Shown here piece after piece: positions 6,639-13,661 of a stretch of DNA of 13,860 nt (positions are counted from its first letter, which is position 1; each line of letters opens with the position of its first letter). This stretch comes from a bacterium (GTDB lineage Bacteria; UBA10199; 2-02-FULL-44-16; DYJF01). The stretch covers positions 1-13,860 of the forward strand of contig JBGSNL010000001.1 in the NCBI GenBank assembly GCA_041739675.1, given 5' to 3'. The translations under genes and the position numbers were made by a program. The notes under the pieces are model-generated. The model saw only the letters and a program-made list of their open reading frames with translations, searched no databases and was not told the DNA's origin.

Positions 6639-8801
6639 CTATCCGCTTCTCACCCTCTGAACGGAGATTATACCCTTAAGCCTCTCCAGGGACTTGATCA
6701 CATTCCTCAGCTGGGCCACGTTCTTGATCTCAAGATCAAAGTTGTTCACCGCCGTCTGATCCTCCCTCGTCTGGATGGAGGCCGCGGAAATATTCACGCC
6801 CTCGGCGGTTATGGCCTCCGTCATGGCGGCGAGCAGGCCCGGCCTGTCGGCGCATACGACGCGGATCTTTGCGGTGTGCAGCGCATCAGAGCTCTCGTCC
6901 CATTCGACGTCGACCCGGCGCGTGGGATCCTGGCCCACAACCTTTGGGCAGTCGGAGACGTGAATCGAAACGCCCCTTCCCCTCGTGACAAAACCGACGA
7001 TCGAATCGCCCGGCACCGGGTTACAGCATTTCCCGAAATTGACCAGCATATCGGAATAGCCGCTCACCTTCACGAGCCCTTTCGGACGCGTGAGACGGCG
7101 AACGATCTTTCCTATGACCGATTCCTTCTCTTTCTCCTTCGCCGCCTCTTCGGGCATAAGCTGATCGTGGGAGATAAAAAGACCTATGATCTGCGTGGGC
7201 GATATCTTGCCGTAACCTATGGCGGAGAGGATCGCGTCTGCGCCGTCGTAGGACGCGTTCTTGGCGAACTCATCGAGTTCGCGGCTCTTCAGCATTCTGT
7301 TGATATTGAGGCCGTATCGCCCCGCGGCTTTTTCAAGAATTTCGTGTCCGATCGCGCGGCTTTTTTCATGCTCCTCGGAACGTAAAAACGAACGGATTTT
7401 GGCTTTCGCGCGCGAGGTGACCACAAACTGCAGCCAGTCTTTGTGCGGATGTTTTTCCTTCTGCGTCAGAATTTCAACTGTATCGCCGCTGTGGAGCTGG
7501 TATTTGAGCGGAACGATCTTGCCGTTGATCTTGGCACCCACCGTGGAATGGCCGAGATCGGTGTGGATGCTGTAAGCGAAATCGAGCGGCGTGGAACCGC
7601 GCGGGAGTTCTTTTAGCTGGCCCTTCGGCGTGAAGATGTAGACGTCCTCCGCGAAGAGATCGAGCTTGACCGTCTCCAAAAATTCAGCGGAATCTGAAAT
7701 TTCACTCTGCCATTCAAGCAGGCGCCTGAGCCACTTGAACTTCAACTCGTCTTTGTCTTCCATCAGGCGCCCTTCTTTGTATTTCCAGTGGGCGGCGATC
7801 CCGTGCTCGGCGGTCTCCTGCATCTGAGTTGTTCTTATCTGGAACTCTATCCTGTCGCCGTGCGGCCCGATGACGGTCGTGTGCAAAGATTGGTAGTTGT
7901 TGGCCTTGGGCATCGCTATGTAATCCCTGAACCTTCCCGGAACCGGGCGCCAGAGGGCGTGGATCACGCCCAGCGCCTCGTAGCACTGCTGCACGTTATC
8001 GACTATGATGCGGAAGGCGACTATGTCGTGGACCTCGTCGAAAGGAATGTTCTGCGACACCATTTTTTTGTGAATGCTCTGGTAGTGTTTCAGACGCCCG
8101 TAAATCTCGCCGTGGACATTATGCTCTTTGAGGGTTTTTTCGACGAGGTTTCTCACTTCGGTTATGTGTTTATCGCGCTGGGAGGCCCTCTTTCTCACTT
8201 GCTCGTCGATGTGCTGCCAGACATCCGGTTTCAAAAATTTCAGCGCCAGATCCTCCAGCTCTGTCTTCATCTCCTGAATTCCAAGGCGGTTCGCGATGGG
8301 GGCGTAGATGTCCATCGTTTCCTGCGCGATCGCTACCTGGCGGTTCTCCGGAAGGTGTTCCAGCGTGCGCATGTTGTGGAGGCGGTCGGCGAGCTTGATG
8401 AGAATGACGCGTATGTCCTGCGCCATCGCCATGAGCATTTTTCTAAAATTCTCCGCCTGCTTTTCCTCAATGGATGTAAACTGAATGCGCGAAAGTTTCG
8501 TAACGCCGTCGACGAGATTTTTTATCTCCTGACCGAAGAGGCGCTCCACCTCTTCAAGCGTTGTTACCGTGTCCTCGACCGTATCGTGCAGAAGGGCCGT
8601 GGCGATTGAAGGCACGTCGAGTTTCATTCGCGCGAGGATTCCGGCGACTTCCATCGGGTGAACGAGGTAAGGTTCTCCCGACTGTCTGGTCTGCCCCTCA
8701 TGCACTTTTGCCGAAAAGACGTATGCCTTTTTTATGAGGTCGAGATCGGCCTCGGGGTTGTAGGCGGAGACTGTATCGAGGATGTCATGGAGCCGGATCA
8801 T
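6639..8801 (-). CDS. rel: Long bifunctional RelA/SpoT homologue, (p)ppGpp synthetase/hydrolase (Rel)
   Basis: Intact HD hydrolase (R-SGEPYLVHP, LLHDTVEDT, IKLADRLHNMRTL), synthetase (GRLK, DIVAFRI, RFRDYIA-PK-N-YQSLHT, EFQIRT, GIAAHWKYK), TGS (FTPKG, TPLDFAYSIHT), zinc finger (KCCNPVPGD...H--DC) and ACT (DRPGLL). Confidence 0.97.
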   Translation of the reverse strand: MIRLHDILDTVSAYNPEADLDLIKKAYVFSAKVHEGQTRQSGEPYLVHPMEVAGILARMKLDVPSIATALLHDTVEDTVTTLEEVERLFGQEIKNLVDGVTKLSRIQFTSIEEKQAENFRKMLMAMAQDIRVILIKLADRLHNMRTLEHLPENRQVAIAQETMDIYAPIANRLGIQEMKTELEDLALKFLKPDVWQHIDEQVRKRASQRDKHITEVRNLVEKTLKEHNVHGEIYGRLKHYQSIHKKMVSQNIPFDEVHDIVAFRIIVDNVQQCYEALGVIHALWRPVPGRFRDYIAMPKANNYQSLHTTVIGPHGDRIEFQIRTTQMQETAEHGIAAHWKYKEGRLMEDKDELKFKWLRRLLEWQSEISDSAEFLETVKLDLFAEDVYIFTPKGQLKELPRGSTPLDFAYSIHTDLGHSTVGAKINGKIVPLKYQLHSGDTVEILTQKEKHPHKDWLQFVVTSRAKAKIRSFLRSEEHEKSRAIGHEILEKAAGRYGLNINRMLKSRELDEFAKNASYDGADAILSAIGYGKISPTQIIGLFISHDQLMPEEAAKEKEKESVIGKIVRRLTRPKGLVKVSGYSDMLVNFGKCCNPVPGDSIVGFVTRGRGVSIHVSDCPKVVGQDPTRRVDVEWDESSDALHTAKIRVVCADRPGLLAAMTEAITAEGVNISAASIQTREDQTAVNNFDLEIKNVAQLRNVIKSLERLKGIISVQRVRSG

Positions 8802-8809
8802 GAATTGGG

Positions 8810-8838
8810 AAAATAACCAAATAAAAGGCGCTTTACAA
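8810..8838 (-). promoter_or_regulatory. Putative sigma70 promoter directly upstream of rel
   Basis: - strand TTGTAA (8838-8833), exactly 17 bp, TATTTT (8815-8810), then 8 nt to the rel ATG. Confidence 0.55.
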
Positions 8839-8845
8839 TGCCATT

Positions 8846-9409
8846 TTAGTGTTTTTTGGGAGGATTAATTATTTCCGCGATCTCGTAGCAGGCCCTCTTG
8901 AGGTCGTCGTTCACAATGCGGTGCTCGTAGCGGTCCATAAAGCCCATTTCCCGCGTGGCATTTTCGAGGCGTCTGGCCACTACCGCCTCCGAATCAGTTT
9001 TGCGGCCAGCCAGCCTTTTCTTCAGCTCGTCAAAGCTGGGCGGGGTGAGAAAGATCGTGACGGCGTTAGGATAGCGTTTTTTGAGCGCCATCCCCCCCTG
9101 AATGTCTATGTCGAGGACGACGTTTTTGCCCGAGGCTACGGCGTCCTCAAGCTCAAGCCGCGGCGTTCCGTAAAAGGCGCCGTGGACCTCCGCCCATTCG
9201 GCAAAGAAGTCCTCGTCACGGAGTTTTTTAAAGGTTGTCTCGTCCACGAAGCGGTAATCTTTCCCCTCATGCTCGCCTCCCCTTGGGGGCCTGGTCGTGT
9301 ATGAAATGGAATAGACAAGATCGGGTATTTTTTTAAGGAGATGCGCGACGACCGTGGATTTGCCGGTCCCCGACGGGGCAGATATTATGAATAGGCGGCC
9401 TTTTTTCAT
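8846..9409 (-). CDS. gmk: Guanylate kinase
   Basis: P-loop SAPSGTGKST, SISYTTRPPR-GE--GKDYRF, FAEWAEVHG-FYGT, LDIDIQG, IFL-PPS, IVNDDL. Confidence 0.97.
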   Translation of the reverse strand: MKKGRLFIISAPSGTGKSTVVAHLLKKIPDLVYSISYTTRPPRGGEHEGKDYRFVDETTFKKLRDEDFFAEWAEVHGAFYGTPRLELEDAVASGKNVVLDIDIQGGMALKKRYPNAVTIFLTPPSFDELKKRLAGRKTDSEAVVARRLENATREMGFMDRYEHRIVNDDLKRACYEIAEIINPPKKH

Positions 9410-10276
9410 TTATTCGATATTCTGAACCTGCTCCCGCAGGCGTTCGAGTTCGGTCTTGCAGTCCACTACCAGCCGGGAGATTTCTGAATCCGCAGCTTTT
9501 GCGCCTATCGTGTTGACCTCGCGGTTGATCTCCTGAAGCAGAAAATCGAGCTTTCTGCCCACTGCATCGCGGCTGACAAGAAGGGATTCATATTGCTTGA
9601 TGTGGCTTTCCAGGCGCGTCAGTTCTTCGGCAATGTCCTGCCTGCCGCCAAGGTATGCAACTTCGGTCTCCAGACGCTTGTCATCCACCTGCCCGCTTCC
9701 GGCGACCATGCTGCGCACCCTTTCACGGTGGCGGTTAAGGGCCGTCGCCGCCCGTCTGTGGATCTGCGCTATGTTTTTCTCGATGTGTTTTACCCTTTTT
9801 TTCTGATCCTTTTGCGTGTGGAGACCCTCTCTGGCCCTCATCTTGTCGACATGATTGCATGCGAGGCGGAGAAGCTTTTCGATCTGATTCCACATGCGGC
9901 TGTAATCGCCCTCTTTTTCCTTGAGCGTTACGAAATGATCTAGCCCCACATAGTGGAGGAATTCGTCCGAGGCCTTGAGCTTGAGGTTTTTTTCAAGTTT
10001 CTTGAGGCAGCCTAGATATTTTCTGGCAAGTTCAGTGTCTACGTGAAGCTCAGTGTCGCCGAAAAGCACCTCTTTTTCCTTAACAAACACATCAACCTTC
10101 CCTCGCATATATCTATTCTGTAAGTGTTTTTTCATTAAGGATTCAAGGACGCCCATCTTTGGGGGCTGTTTGATGTTTATCTCGCAAAAACGGTGGTTGA
10201 CCGTCTTCACCTCTATGAAAAGACGCCCCTTGCCGACCTTCCCTTCAGCGGTTCCGTATCCAGTCATTGATTTCAT
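9410..10276 (-). CDS. yicC: YicC/YloC family endoribonuclease
   Basis: MKSMTGYG, EVKTVNHRF, RGKVD, R-REG, DIAEELTRL-SH, GRKLDFLLQEINREVNTIGAK, K-ELERLREQVQNIE. Stop directly abuts the gmk start. Confidence 0.95.
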   Translation of the reverse strand: MKSMTGYGTAEGKVGKGRLFIEVKTVNHRFCEINIKQPPKMGVLESLMKKHLQNRYMRGKVDVFVKEKEVLFGDTELHVDTELARKYLGCLKKLEKNLKLKASDEFLHYVGLDHFVTLKEKEGDYSRMWNQIEKLLRLACNHVDKMRAREGLHTQKDQKKRVKHIEKNIAQIHRRAATALNRHRERVRSMVAGSGQVDDKRLETEVAYLGGRQDIAEELTRLESHIKQYESLLVSRDAVGRKLDFLLQEINREVNTIGAKAADSEISRLVVDCKTELERLREQVQNIE

Positions 10277-10282
10277 GGCAGA

Positions 10283-10933
10283 TCACCCCTCGAATACAAT
10301 TTTGGTCTCTCCCAGTTCTATCATATCCCCCTTTTGCAGGAGGCGGGATTCGACCTCGACACCGTTGACGAACGTGCCGTTCTTGCTCACCAGATCCAGA
10401 ATGCCCACTTGTCCTTCGTCAGCGAAAAGCATGGCGTGAAGGCGCGAGAGGCTGTGGTCGGTCAGGACGATATCAGGCGAACGTCTGAAGACCCCCAGCT
10501 GCTCTCCCACCGCGGTCTGCGCGGCCTGCGGCTTCGTGGCCATGAACTGCTTTTGTATATATTTGAGTATCAGGTTTTTCGTGCCTTCGTCTATGGAAAG
10601 GGCAAGGTCCACGTTGAACATCATGGTCCTGTTTACGTCTGTCTCGCCGCGGCCGACCGCCCTGCAGCTTCTTTGTTCAAGCTGAAAAGAGAGACCCGAA
10701 TCAGGCCCCTGCACGATCTTGAACGAGGCCTTGGGAAGATGGGACGCGCCCGGTTTGGGCGCTCCGCCGCGCAAATCGGAAGCCTCTTCGACAAGCATGA
10801 CAGGGATATCGTCACGGACGGGGTATTTCAGCTGGCACTTGGAACAAACGAGGCCTCTTCCCCCATCAGCGAGGGAGAGGCCTTGTTTGCATTGCGGACA
10901 AACCAATATGTCTAATAACTGTTTATCGATCAA
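10283..10933 (-). CDS. Trm112/YcaR (UPF0434) zinc-ribbon domain fused to an FHA domain with a large insertion
   Basis: aa 1-54: LLDILVCPQCK...LVCSKC-LKYPVRDDIPVMLVEEA (Trm112-like). aa ~69-215: FHA motifs GP--G--F-L, VGR, DIVL-D--LSR-HA, DL-SKNGTFVNG, L--GD-I-LGET. TTG start 8 nt after SD-like AGGGGAG, which overlaps the skp stop. Confidence 0.85.
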   Translation of the reverse strand: MIDKQLLDILVCPQCKQGLSLADGGRGLVCSKCQLKYPVRDDIPVMLVEEASDLRGGAPKPGASHLPKASFKIVQGPDSGLSFQLEQRSCRAVGRGETDVNRTMMFNVDLALSIDEGTKNLILKYIQKQFMATKPQAAQTAVGEQLGVFRRSPDIVLTDHSLSRLHAMLFADEGQVGILDLVSKNGTFVNGVEVESRLLQKGDMIELGETKIVFEG

Positions 10934-10946
10934 TTCCCAAGCTCCC

Positions 10947-11498
10947 CTACTTTGCAGCTTTTGCCTTGGGGGTGGAGTTGCAAATCTTTATGACTTCGTC
11001 GGTCAGATCGTTGACGGTCGGAGCGTAGAGCACGACGTCCTGCGATTTCTCGAGAATCATCGTATAGCTGCCCTTTGTTCCGAGATCTTTCACGATTCCC
11101 TTTAGCTTTTCCAAAAGTCCGGCTGTCATTGCGCCTTCCTTCTGGGCCATCTCCTGCTTGAAGGTTCCGAGCTTCTGCTGGAGCTCCATGAACTTGTTGC
11201 GATACTCCTCTTCCTTGGCCTTCAAGGCATCCTGTGAGAGTATCAGGCGCTGCTTGTCCAGATCTTCCTTCATCTTTTTGAGCTCATTCTGGACGATGTC
11301 CAGTTTCTGCTGGCGCTCGTTGAACTCCGCCTTGAGCGTGCCCTTTGCCGACTTTCCCTCTTCCGTCTCATTGAGGGCGCGGTTGAAGTCCACGTAGCCG
11401 AACTTCAGATTGTCGGCTGCCGGCTGGGACGCTGCTTTCGCGGCCGGTGCTGCCAGGAGAACTGCCAGGGCGACTAGGGCCAATACTGTTTTCTTCAT
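10947..11498 (-). CDS. skp: Periplasmic OMP chaperone Skp/OmpH
   Basis: Sec signal peptide (MKKTVLALVALAVLLAAPAAKA), KFGYVDF-RAL, long coiled coil, GSYTMILE, VLYA----DLTDEVIK. SD AAGGAGGT at 11508-11515. Confidence 0.9.
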   Translation of the reverse strand: MKKTVLALVALAVLLAAPAAKAASQPAADNLKFGYVDFNRALNETEEGKSAKGTLKAEFNERQQKLDIVQNELKKMKEDLDKQRLILSQDALKAKEEEYRNKFMELQQKLGTFKQEMAQKEGAMTAGLLEKLKGIVKDLGTKGSYTMILEKSQDVVLYAPTVNDLTDEVIKICNSTPKAKAAK

Positions 11499-11635: not shown

Positions 11636-12430
11636 CTAGCCTTCGCTGCCGCCGGTGCGGTATCCTGCGATGTCCAGCGCTGCAAATTTGTAGCCCAGCT
11701 TTTTGAGTCCATCTTCAATTTTTTCGCGATGTTCGAGACATTGCATGAACTCGGAGGGCGCGATTTCAATACGGGCGACATCGCCGTGATGGCGCACCCT
11801 CACCTGAGTCAGACCGCAAGAGCGTATGAGCTCTTCCGCGTCGTCTATTTTTCTCAGAAGCCCGGCAGTGAGTTTTTCCCCGAAGGGGATGCGTGACGAA
11901 AGACAGGCGCTGGATGGTTTGTCGGCGACAGAGAGTTTAAGCTCGCGCGCCAGACGCCTGACGTCCTCTTTTGTGAGCGCCGCGTCGATGAGCGGCGTCA
12001 CGACGTTTCTTCGTTCCAGCGACGCGCGGTAACCCGGGCGATGCCCTTTGAGATCGGATGCGTTTGTGCCCTCTATTATATATTTGAATCCTTTTTCGCC
12101 GGCCAGTTTTTCAAAACTTTCATAGAGAGCGCGTTTGCAATAGAAACAGCGCTCTTTCGGATTGGCCGTGTAGTTCGAATCCTCAAACTCATTTGTCTCT
12201 ATCAGGAAGTGGGGTATTCCCCTTTCGCGGCAGAAGCCAACGGCTATGAGACGGTCGCGCGAAGGGATGCTTGGCGATAAAGCGGTCGCCGCGCACATAT
12301 TTTCCTTGAGCTCCTGATGAGCGAGCACGGCGAGAACGGCGGAATCGACACCGCCCGAGAAAGCAACAACGGCGCTCGGAAGTTCCCCCAGGCGCCGTCG
12401 TAATTGCGCGACTCTGTTATTATATGTCAT
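11636..12430 (-). CDS. larE: LarE family ATP-dependent sulfur transferase (PP-loop)
   Basis: VAFSGGVDS, N---RCFYCK, EGTNASD---HRPG, PL-DA-LTKEDVR, KPSSACLSSRIPFG, VRVRHHGDVARIE, D--GYRTG. Start at ATG 12430 overlaps the HAD stop (ATGA). 264 aa. Confidence 0.9.
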   Translation of the reverse strand: MTYNNRVAQLRRRLGELPSAVVAFSGGVDSAVLAVLAHQELKENMCAATALSPSIPSRDRLIAVGFCRERGIPHFLIETNEFEDSNYTANPKERCFYCKRALYESFEKLAGEKGFKYIIEGTNASDLKGHRPGYRASLERRNVVTPLIDAALTKEDVRRLARELKLSVADKPSSACLSSRIPFGEKLTAGLLRKIDDAEELIRSCGLTQVRVRHHGDVARIEIAPSEFMQCLEHREKIEDGLKKLGYKFAALDIAGYRTGGSEG

Positions 12431-13080
12431 GTCCTTACCGATGTGAGAAGATATTGCCTCAATTCGCCCACGGTTTCCGCGACCATGTCGGCACCGGCGG
12501 CACTCAGCTCTTCCTTTGTTCCGTAGCCGTAAGTGACTCCTATCGATGCGCACCCGCACTTCTTGGCGGCGGTGATGTCGACGCCGCGGTCGCCTATGAC
12601 CACACCGTTGCGCAGGCTCTCTTTTTTAATCACGTGTTTCAAAACTTCCGTCTTGTCGGAGAGTTTTCCGCTTAAATCGGCGCCGTAGACGCCTGTGAAC
12701 ATCGGGCGAATGCCCAGATGATCGAGGACCATTTCGCATGATACCTGCGGTTTTATCGAGGCGATAATGAGATGACCCTGCCTTGCTACCGCTTCCAGAA
12801 GGCCCACTATTCCGGGATAGAGGCGATGTTCTGCGATCCCTTCCTTATGAAAGCGTTCCCGGTAGGAATCGACGCAGGATTTCAAAAAGCGCTTGTCTTT
12901 CTTTCCCGTCACCTGGCCCAGTATCTCTTCAAGGCTGAAACCTATATAGCGCTTCAGGCGTTCGATCGGCACGGGCTTGATCCCATGTTTCTTAAGTGCG
13001 TGGTTTATACAGCGCGGTATCGCGGTGCCTGGGTTGACGATTGTTCCGTCGAGATCGAAAATGAAAGTTGGCTTTTTCAT
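12427..13080 (-). CDS. HAD-IA family hydrolase (phosphoglycolate phosphatase/5'-nucleotidase-like)
   Basis: Motif I FDLDGTI, LYPGI, motif II ASIKP, motif III K (SDK), motif IV IGDRGVDI, GVTYGYG--EEL--AGAD. SD GAGGT 8 nt upstream. Confidence 0.9.
   Translation of the reverse strand: MKKPTFIFDLDGTIVNPGTAIPRCINHALKKHGIKPVPIERLKRYIGFSLEEILGQVTGKKDKRFLKSCVDSYRERFHKEGIAEHRLYPGIVGLLEAVARQGHLIIASIKPQVSCEMVLDHLGIRPMFTGVYGADLSGKLSDKTEVLKHVIKKESLRNGVVIGDRGVDITAAKKCGCASIGVTYGYGTKEELSAAGADMVAETVGELRQYLLTSVRT

Positions 13081-13177: not shown

Positions 13178-13178
<1 letters not shown>
13153..13178 (-). terminator. Intrinsic terminator of the tRNA-fMet gene (potentially bidirectional)
   Basis: - strand AAAAGGGCCT-TAAA-AGGCCC-TTTTTT starting at the tRNA CCA end. 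A/T tracts on both sides. Confidence 0.85.
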
Positions 13179-13254
<76 letters not shown>

Positions 13255-13304: not shown

Positions 13305-13661
13305 TCATTTTTTGTATGACCTGAAAGCATCCCACGCCTCTTTTCCGCACTCGCCGATAGAGAAAAGACAAGGTGTGCAAGTGCCTGAGGTGATGAAGTC
13401 GATTGTGCAGCTCACTTTCTCGCCGGCGGTCATCTTGCCCGATGCCTTGTTGTCTTTGAGCTCAACGTTTTGTCCGCCCACCATCCCGGCAAATGTGAAG
13501 TGAACTTTTCCCTCGCTGTCAGTTTCGGTTGCCGTACAGACACCTCCGATTTTTTCATACGTGCACGGTCCGCCCACAAGGGTGCCTTTCTGGGCCGCGT
13601 TGGAGCCGCATGAAATCGACGGCAACATAAACGCAATTATTACGATGATCATCCGCAGCAT
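13305..13661 (-). CDS. Small Cys-rich putative lipoprotein/secreted protein of unknown function
   Basis: Strong SD AAAGGAGGT (13666-13674). Hydrophobic N-terminus ending in imperfect lipobox S-I-S-C18. Six more Cys in the mature part. Confidence 0.7.
   Translation of the reverse strand: MLRMIIVIIAFMLPSISCGSNAAQKGTLVGGPCTYEKIGGVCTATETDSEGKVHFTFAGMVGGQNVELKDNKASGKMTAGEKVSCTIDFITSGTCTPCLFSIGECGKEAWDAFRSYKK

Follow-up and report, generated by a model that had tools for sequence, protein, structure and literature searches.

The FHA proteins closest to the one described here are regulated by their own phosphorylated tails. GarA is switched off once its phosphorylated tail binds its own FHA domain (PMC5448819, PMC12321487), and a study that includes DgcB describes such self-binding tails as sharing hydrophobic residues at -3, +2, and +3, glutamate at -2, and serine at +1 (PMC6733907). 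The second family of interest is Trm112, whose bacterial members, the YcaR proteins, are described as being of unknown function in two articles (PMC5372719, PMC6144793). The first of these notes that bacterial YcaR is sometimes fused to methyltransferases and that PrmC is universal in bacteria and acts alone in E. coli (PMC5372719); the second states that Trm112 binds its class I methyltransferase through its last strand, zipping on to it, and that for the Desulfovibrio vulgaris Trm112 orthologue interactions with HemK, UbiE, and Sun have been reported (PMC6144793). Here we describe a gene in which a Trm112/YcaR zinc knuckle is joined to an FHA domain with a conserved threonine segment inside it. 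We judge the chance to be slightly better than even (about 0.55) that the fusion is a self-binding phospho-switch of the GarA/OdhI/DgcB type, with predicted phosphorylation and docking; as the tails of the described self-binding FHA switches are N-terminal, one placed within the binding loop would amount to a new arrangement.

The fusion gene and its spread

The window (the whole stretch of DNA analyzed, 13,860 nucleotides) contains the fusion gene with the following parts:

10283..10933, minus strand: Trm112/YcaR-FHA fusion gene, 216 aa, TTG start
10942..10946, minus strand: GGGAG, Shine-Dalgarno-like, 8 nt 5' of the TTG start, seen in the sequence
10772..10933, minus strand: YcaR/Trm112 zinc knuckle, aa 1-54, with C12, C15, C30, and C33 and the strand P44-L47
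10733..10771, minus strand: variable linker, aa 55-67, poorly conserved, pLDDT below 50 at 57-64
10649..10732, minus strand: FHA strands on the N-terminal side of the insertion, aa 68-95, up to and including G94-R95 (model strands 68-75, 82-86, and 89-95)
10484..10648, minus strand: insertion of about 55 aa after R95, with the Thr segment, a helix at 116-130, a variable loop, and G147-x-F149-x-R151
10586..10639, minus strand: GarA-tail-like segment, aa 99-116, with the Thr103 codon at 10627-10625; candidate phosphosite and self-ligand
10286..10483, minus strand: FHA strands after the insertion, aa 151-216, carrying S163, R164, H166, S183, and N185

The initial annotation had read positions 10283-10933 as one uninterrupted frame of 216 residues, 13 bp from skp and 6 bp from yicC, and both the frame (internal stops, 0) and the two gaps are as it claimed. 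Its domain assignments also hold: the Trm112-like N-terminus matches Pfam Trm112p over residues 3-42 with 42.4 bits (cut-off 22), Pfam FHA (PF00498) matches residues 151-208 with 56 bits (cut-off 20.7), and both Pfam domains lie in a single chain in 118 of the best 120 of 358 homologues. A missed stop or frameshift in the linker had been named as a point to check. A contig from an independent study covers positions 10150-11048 with 38 substitutions and 0 gaps, and none of the linker changes among the substitutions listed for it creates a stop. An assembly artefact is ruled out by the homologues, by the phylum-wide orthologues, and by the independent contig without a gap; the Trm112-FHA fusion gene is real. 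Scans for promoters and terminators gave scores at chance level. Databases already carry the domain pair of Trm112 and FHA as an automatic annotation, and the library searched, which contains few subscription papers, yielded no paper that combines the two, so that within this scope the architecture is, as had been supposed, not previously characterized.

We measured the spread of the fusion with a profile of the FHA part across 93 genomes of the window's phylum. A single-copy orthologue is present in 87 of the 93, including all 63 of the high-quality genomes; the six genomes without a match are 60-83% complete, and in the three genomes with two matches both are pieces of one gene. The 87 genomes contributed 89 loci, and removal of six fragment rows left 83 ORFs. 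The knuckle is found in 79 of these; two others are cut by a contig end and two (genomes G030 and G071) genuinely lack it, so that the 81 complete ORFs comprise 79 with the knuckle and its cysteine pattern and 2 without. The fusion is a single-copy core gene of one uncultured bacterial phylum, and its named relatives are metagenome bins without exception. In the two knuckle-less loci (L127 of G030 and L244 of G071), an insertion-bearing FHA domain with the threonine still stands between skp and yicC. The fusion gene of one single-contig genome (L252, G063:C1:1920020-1920674) is split over two frames, possibly by a sequencing indel.

The possibility that the architecture is widespread beyond the phylum was rejected within the scope of the search, which did not extend to Myxococcota or Bdellovibrionota at the phylum level. 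No full-length relative occurs in 151 genomes of the phylum of genome G093, where the lone match covers profile positions 85-147 only, or in 5 other genomes. Among 80 yicC loci, FHA or Trm112 lies nearby in just one, which is from the fusion family itself. Sixteen longer proteins match only 36-60% of the fusion query, and the viral contigs searched gave a single match of 16 residues. In an atlas search the family's own cluster, with 72 members, was the sole match at 0.9 or above; the insertion alone gave no match at 0.9.

The phosphothreonine pocket and the Thr103 segment

The FHA identity proposed in the initial annotation stands, but the domain is not contiguous: about 55 residues (approximately 96-150) are inserted right after R95. 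The size of the insertion follows from the Pfam FHA model, which matches the fusion only from model position 7, and from the structure of the GarA FHA domain (6i2q), all 97 residues of which align over residues 65-216 of the predicted model, a span of 152 residues (Z 14.2, rmsd 1.7). Across a 148-row alignment of fusion homologues (rows below 75% identity), the span from R95 to D154 varies from 44 to 71 residues. In the AlphaFold2 model (mean pLDDT 80, pTM 0.61), residues 68-95 and 149-214 form the FHA strands and 116-130 the helix, and there is no membrane segment; confidence is low at residues 101-110 (pLDDT below 50) and 134-142, and the linker is loose. Its best fold matches are GarA, then OdhI and DgcB. 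The FHA domain of Pellino (3egb) likewise has a core into which large insertions are set (of its 235 residues, 97 align), but Pellino is a eukaryotic E3 ligase and there is no sign that its insertion is related or a self-ligand. The Pellino FHA insertion is described as a 'wing'.

The pocket residues that had been claimed (G94-R95, S163-R164-x-H166, and N185-G-T) are all at the positions given. R95, H166, S183, and G186 are conserved in all 148 rows, S163 in 145, N185 in 144, and G94 in 138. To judge from these residues the pocket is intact, and the domain is a putative phosphothreonine reader. C90, R151, D154, D180, E193, and E195 are near-invariant as well (147-148 of 148 rows); of these, C90, R151, E193, and E195 lie outside the pocket and may hold the insertion or contact a partner. 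The background of Ser/Thr kinases that the initial annotation presupposed is there: Hanks kinases are encoded in 65 of 65 genomes, at least three in each, with five in the window's genome (on C14, C36, C43, C62, and C71).

Position 103, within the insertion, is threonine in 82 of the 83 ORFs and serine in none; for contrast, position 118 is threonine in 63 and serine in 13. Around Thr103 the same ORFs have aspartate at -4 in 68, valine, isoleucine, or methionine at +2 in 74, and phenylalanine at +3 in 60, while -2 is asparagine in 39, glutamate in 19, and aspartate in 8, and +1 is variable (glutamine 24, alanine 16, threonine 10). The pattern T-x-x-hydrophobic stands exactly 8 residues past R95 in 126 of the 148 rows; in the variable loop, taken as a control, 16 of 146 rows have this pattern at any position. 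The segment thus has the conserved threonine, the hydrophobic +2 and +3 residues, the flexibility, and the location in the same chain that go with a self-binding switch, and it mostly lacks the consensus glutamate at -2 and serine at +1.

The segment also resembles the GarA tail, a likeness that was sought with the GarA motif already in mind. In the HMMER alignment, GarA residues 18-35 pair with profile positions 33-50 and T22 falls on T103, the match extending over V-F, D, and L-D, at a score (-1.8 bits) that is not significant alone. The GarA tail peptide scores 12.7 bits on a family matrix; for this matrix 125 of the 148 rows were chosen beforehand by their threonine and aspartate at fixed spacing, a choice that favors the match. 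This value is reached by 12 of 100,000 shuffles and by 3 of the 563,900 windows in the 1,712 ORFs of the window's genome, the fusion itself among the three.

These observations make the protein's own Thr103 segment, as a candidate, the likely ligand of its FHA domain. In the switch that we favor, a Hanks kinase would phosphorylate Thr103, and the phosphothreonine segment would then dock into the protein's own FHA pocket, either within one chain or between the two chains of a dimer. Docking would shut the FHA domain to other partners or alter the oligomeric state, and the inserted helix would move. In a fourth and weakest step, to which we give roughly one chance in three if the first three hold, the knuckle would carry a class I methyltransferase, for example PrmC, whose activity or location would then follow the kinase. 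The low model confidence at 101-110 is as expected for a mobile tail. With no more than 8 residues between R95 and Thr103, docking within one chain may be strained, and the segment is unplaced in the model. Also against the switch, two genomes lack the knuckle and the knuckle strand differs in the most divergent clade.

Alternatively, the FHA domain could be an ordinary reader acting in trans, its pocket binding phosphothreonines of other proteins, with Thr103 a structural residue or a kinase docking site. The intact pocket fits such a reader equally, as do the five kinases and several other FHA proteins of the window's genome. Rows lacking the threonine also bear on this alternative: all seven have a pocket change, versus 6 of the 141 rows with it, which might suggest that segment and pocket are lost together, but other conserved sites deviate equally (0.163 versus 0.174 per site) and the pattern needs only three changes on a 52-row tree. 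What a trans reader leaves unexplained is the strict preference for threonine over serine at 103, with hydrophobic residues at +2 and +3, beside the pocket. Furthermore, no other protein of the window's genome comes near the family score on the matrix (13.4 bits at best, against a member median of 42.8). We consider a trans reader rather unlikely. Five of the rows without the Thr segment form one clade (P0167, P0183, P0200, P0216, and P0228), with G94 changed to alanine or valine and R164 to lysine; another row, P0170, has aspartate at the Thr position together with N185E, and L126 is grouped with the same deviant rows.

The self-binding switch that we prefer would differ from each of its described counterparts. 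Like GarA (mycobacteria and Saccharopolyspora) and OdhI (Corynebacterium glutamicum), the fusion is small, has an FHA domain, and contains a Thr segment alignable with the tail of GarA; unlike them, it has an N-terminal Trm112 knuckle, and its segment lies not at the N-terminus but inside the FHA loop after R95. The N-terminal ETTS motif given for GarA and OdhI in PMC12321487 is absent from the fusion, which has a single threonine, within the FHA domain. The score against the OdhI equivalog model NF041660 is 44.3, far under the cut-off of 200, and no 2-oxoacid dehydrogenase E1 (PF00676), the target of GarA and OdhI, is over cut-off in the window's genome (94.6% complete). A GarA identity was rejected on these three grounds. 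DgcB of Bdellovibrio bacteriovorus (tail-FHA-GGDEF) has the same FHA fold (Z 13.2, rmsd 1.6, 95 residues aligned). According to PMC6733907 its self-ligand threonine also has hydrophobic residues at +2 and +3, as Thr103 does, and its pocket residues correspond by motif to R95, S163, R164, S183, and N185. The fusion differs from DgcB in having no GGDEF or other catalytic output domain, in its internal tail, and in its attached module, the Trm112 knuckle.

The zinc knuckle and candidate partners

The N-terminal knuckle belongs with the Trm112/YcaR family (PF03966): like bacterial YcaR/UPF0434 proteins (BB2007, 2js4; SCO3027, 2kpi) and archaeal and eukaryotic Trm112, it matches the Pfam Trm112p model over cut-off, and it shares with them four cysteines (CPxC...CxxC; C12 and C30 in 79 of 83 ORFs) and a hydrophobic C-terminal strand. 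Its profile matches the structures 2js4, 2kpi, and 6zxw. It falls below the cut-offs of the narrower NCBIfam models for YcaR (34.7 versus 126) and Trm112_arch (36.7 versus 77). In the last hydrophobic strand, P44 is present in 76 of 83 ORFs and methionine, leucine, or phenylalanine at position 46 in 80, with aspartate at position 45 in 9; the strand reads differently in the most divergent clade. Here the knuckle is fused to an FHA domain, whereas the fusions described in PMC5372719 are to methyltransferases.

The fusion knuckle is the only Trm112 of the window's genome, and most genomes of the phylum have just one. In two genomes of one family a stand-alone trm112 lies between skp and the fusion, so that the knuckle occurs twice:

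L233:4940-5158, minus strand: extra stand-alone trm112
L253:567-953, minus strand: extra stand-alone trm112

A separate ORF of genome G018 (L349:1912-2889) has an N-terminal Trm112 knuckle followed by a longer chain that looks methyltransferase-like by eye.

A methyltransferase partner for the knuckle is plausible, as a candidate only, given the interactions reported for the D. vulgaris Trm112. Of 65 genomes, all encode the candidate PrmC/HemK, 47 encode UbiE/MenG, and 26 an RsmB-like protein; in the window's genome the three lie at C51:1071, C43:17416, and C70:810, respectively. PrmC is the only one that matches the spread of the fusion, but it is a weak pointer, being universal in bacteria and acting alone in E. 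coli. Whichever the partner, a knuckle tied to a phospho-reader could serve as a small soluble bait for finding those of Trm112/YcaR.

Gene order and the apparent loss of lipid A

The fusion lies in a conserved neighborhood, whose genes in the window are given here with counts restricted to loci with enough flank:

10947..11498, minus strand: skp (OmpH), Pfam OmpH, upstream neighbor in 83 of 83 loci
9410..10276, minus strand: yicC endoribonuclease, TIGR00255, downstream neighbor in 80 of 81 loci
8846..9409, minus strand: gmk guanylate kinase, TIGR03263, in 59 of 71 loci
6639..8801, minus strand: rel (RelA/SpoT), TIGR00691, in 61 of 67 loci

From the adjacency of yicC and gmk, the initial annotation had suggested a coupling of the fusion to YicC and to guanine-nucleotide genes, and a fuller version would have it link kinase signaling to YicC, Gmk, or Rel, and so to RNA decay and to the control of guanine nucleotides or ppGpp. 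The constancy of yicC and rel and gaps that are often only a few bases speak for such a link, and of the expected synteny the yicC part is borne out. The gmk part is less so: 12 of 71 loci have no gmk and 6 of 67 no rel, the most divergent clade included, and skp is the more constant neighbor. Moreover, trm112 near yicC-gmk is older than the fusion. We compared 80 stand-alone Trm112 loci from other phyla, none of them a fusion and none with an FHA gene nearby, and in 11 of the 80 (ten of them acidobacterial by title) trm112 stands near yicC-gmk, so that the neighborhood is for the most part an inheritance and says little about function. Inherited order explains the adjacency better than coupling does, and we regard the proposed link as quite improbable. 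The genes remA and rpoZ often accompany yicC-gmk-rel. In the window, yicC-gmk-rel has neither of the two (8801-10276); the window's genome has no RemA match and carries rpoZ on contig C7 instead, and a remA-like ORF is seen in locus L070.

The upstream side suggests how the fusion arose. The usual order there is a lolC/E-like permease, lolD, bamA (57 of 68 loci), and skp. In two Geobacteraceae loci with a stand-alone trm112, the order is lysS, lolC/E, lolD, bamA, skp, lpxD, fabZ, lpxA, a dehydrogenase, an aminotransferase, lpxB, msbA, waaA, lpxK, trm112, and a heptosyltransferase. In the phylum of the window, none of the 93 genomes has LpxC, and none has LpxK over cut-off; for LptF/G, 65 genomes yield just 2 matches, both weak and partial. 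The window's genome lacks LpxB and has two matches to the BamA family, but none to LpxA over cut-off. Lipid A synthesis and Lpt transport are thus apparently absent phylum-wide, with BamA, Skp, and LolD kept. Judging from gene order, the simplest reading is that the arrangement at the fusion is probably a deletion scar, in which the block from lpxD to lpxK was lost and ycaR was left beside skp, and that the fusion probably arose after this deletion. The phylum seemingly builds its outer membrane with neither lipid A nor Lpt. This makes the composition of the outer leaflet a question of interest and may matter more than the fusion itself.

This setting could point to a regulator of the envelope, in which the fusion would control how a diderm that has no lipid A makes its outer membrane (through Lol, Bam, Skp, or a substitute for lipid A). 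The unbroken presence of skp and the frequent bamA upstream would fit, and outgroup trm112 genes are near lpxK in 17 of 80 loci and near a heptosyltransferase in 23 of 80. However, the adjacency is inherited, the model has no membrane segment, and ycaR was retained when the LPS genes disappeared, which speaks against a role for it in lipid A synthesis. We think an envelope regulator very improbable.

A gene order that resembles a deletion scar is what would be expected if the knuckle were a passenger. According to this explanation, ycaR and an FHA gene became neighbors after the loss of the lipid A block and fused, and the knuckle is an appendage for stability or translation coupling without a regulated methyltransferase partner. 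The 2 of 81 complete ORFs without a knuckle, the second, stand-alone trm112 that two genomes carry directly upstream of the fusion, and the pTM and loose linker of the model are in keeping with it; the retention of knuckle and cysteine pattern in the other 79, and its being the sole Trm112 of most genomes, are not. A mere passenger seems unlikely to us, though a passenger origin and the phospho-switch are compatible and both can hold together.

Joined with the gene order, the self-binding switch could be extended to a fuller account: a phospho-tail grafted into the FHA loop would put a Trm112 activator, acting most likely on PrmC, under a Ser/Thr kinase; the arrangement would have arisen once, at the scar of the lipid A operon; and the fusion would be a signature gene of a diderm phylum with BamA, Skp, and Lol and without the lipid A pathway or the Lpt transporter. 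PrmC is named because it is the only reported bacterial Trm112 partner in all genomes tested. Taken as a whole, this account is doubtful.

Some loci depart from the usual upstream order. In the window, larE-like and HAD phosphatase genes (11636-13080) replace lol-bamA, as in only three loci, all of the window's family; beyond them lie a tRNA-Met(CAT) at 13178-13254 and, at 13305-13661, a cysteine-rich ORF of 118 residues that begins like a lipoprotein and matches nothing in Pfam or NCBIfam. In part of the order, skp is duplicated in tandem upstream of the fusion (L113-L115, L117, L137, L139, L141-L143, and L145-L147).
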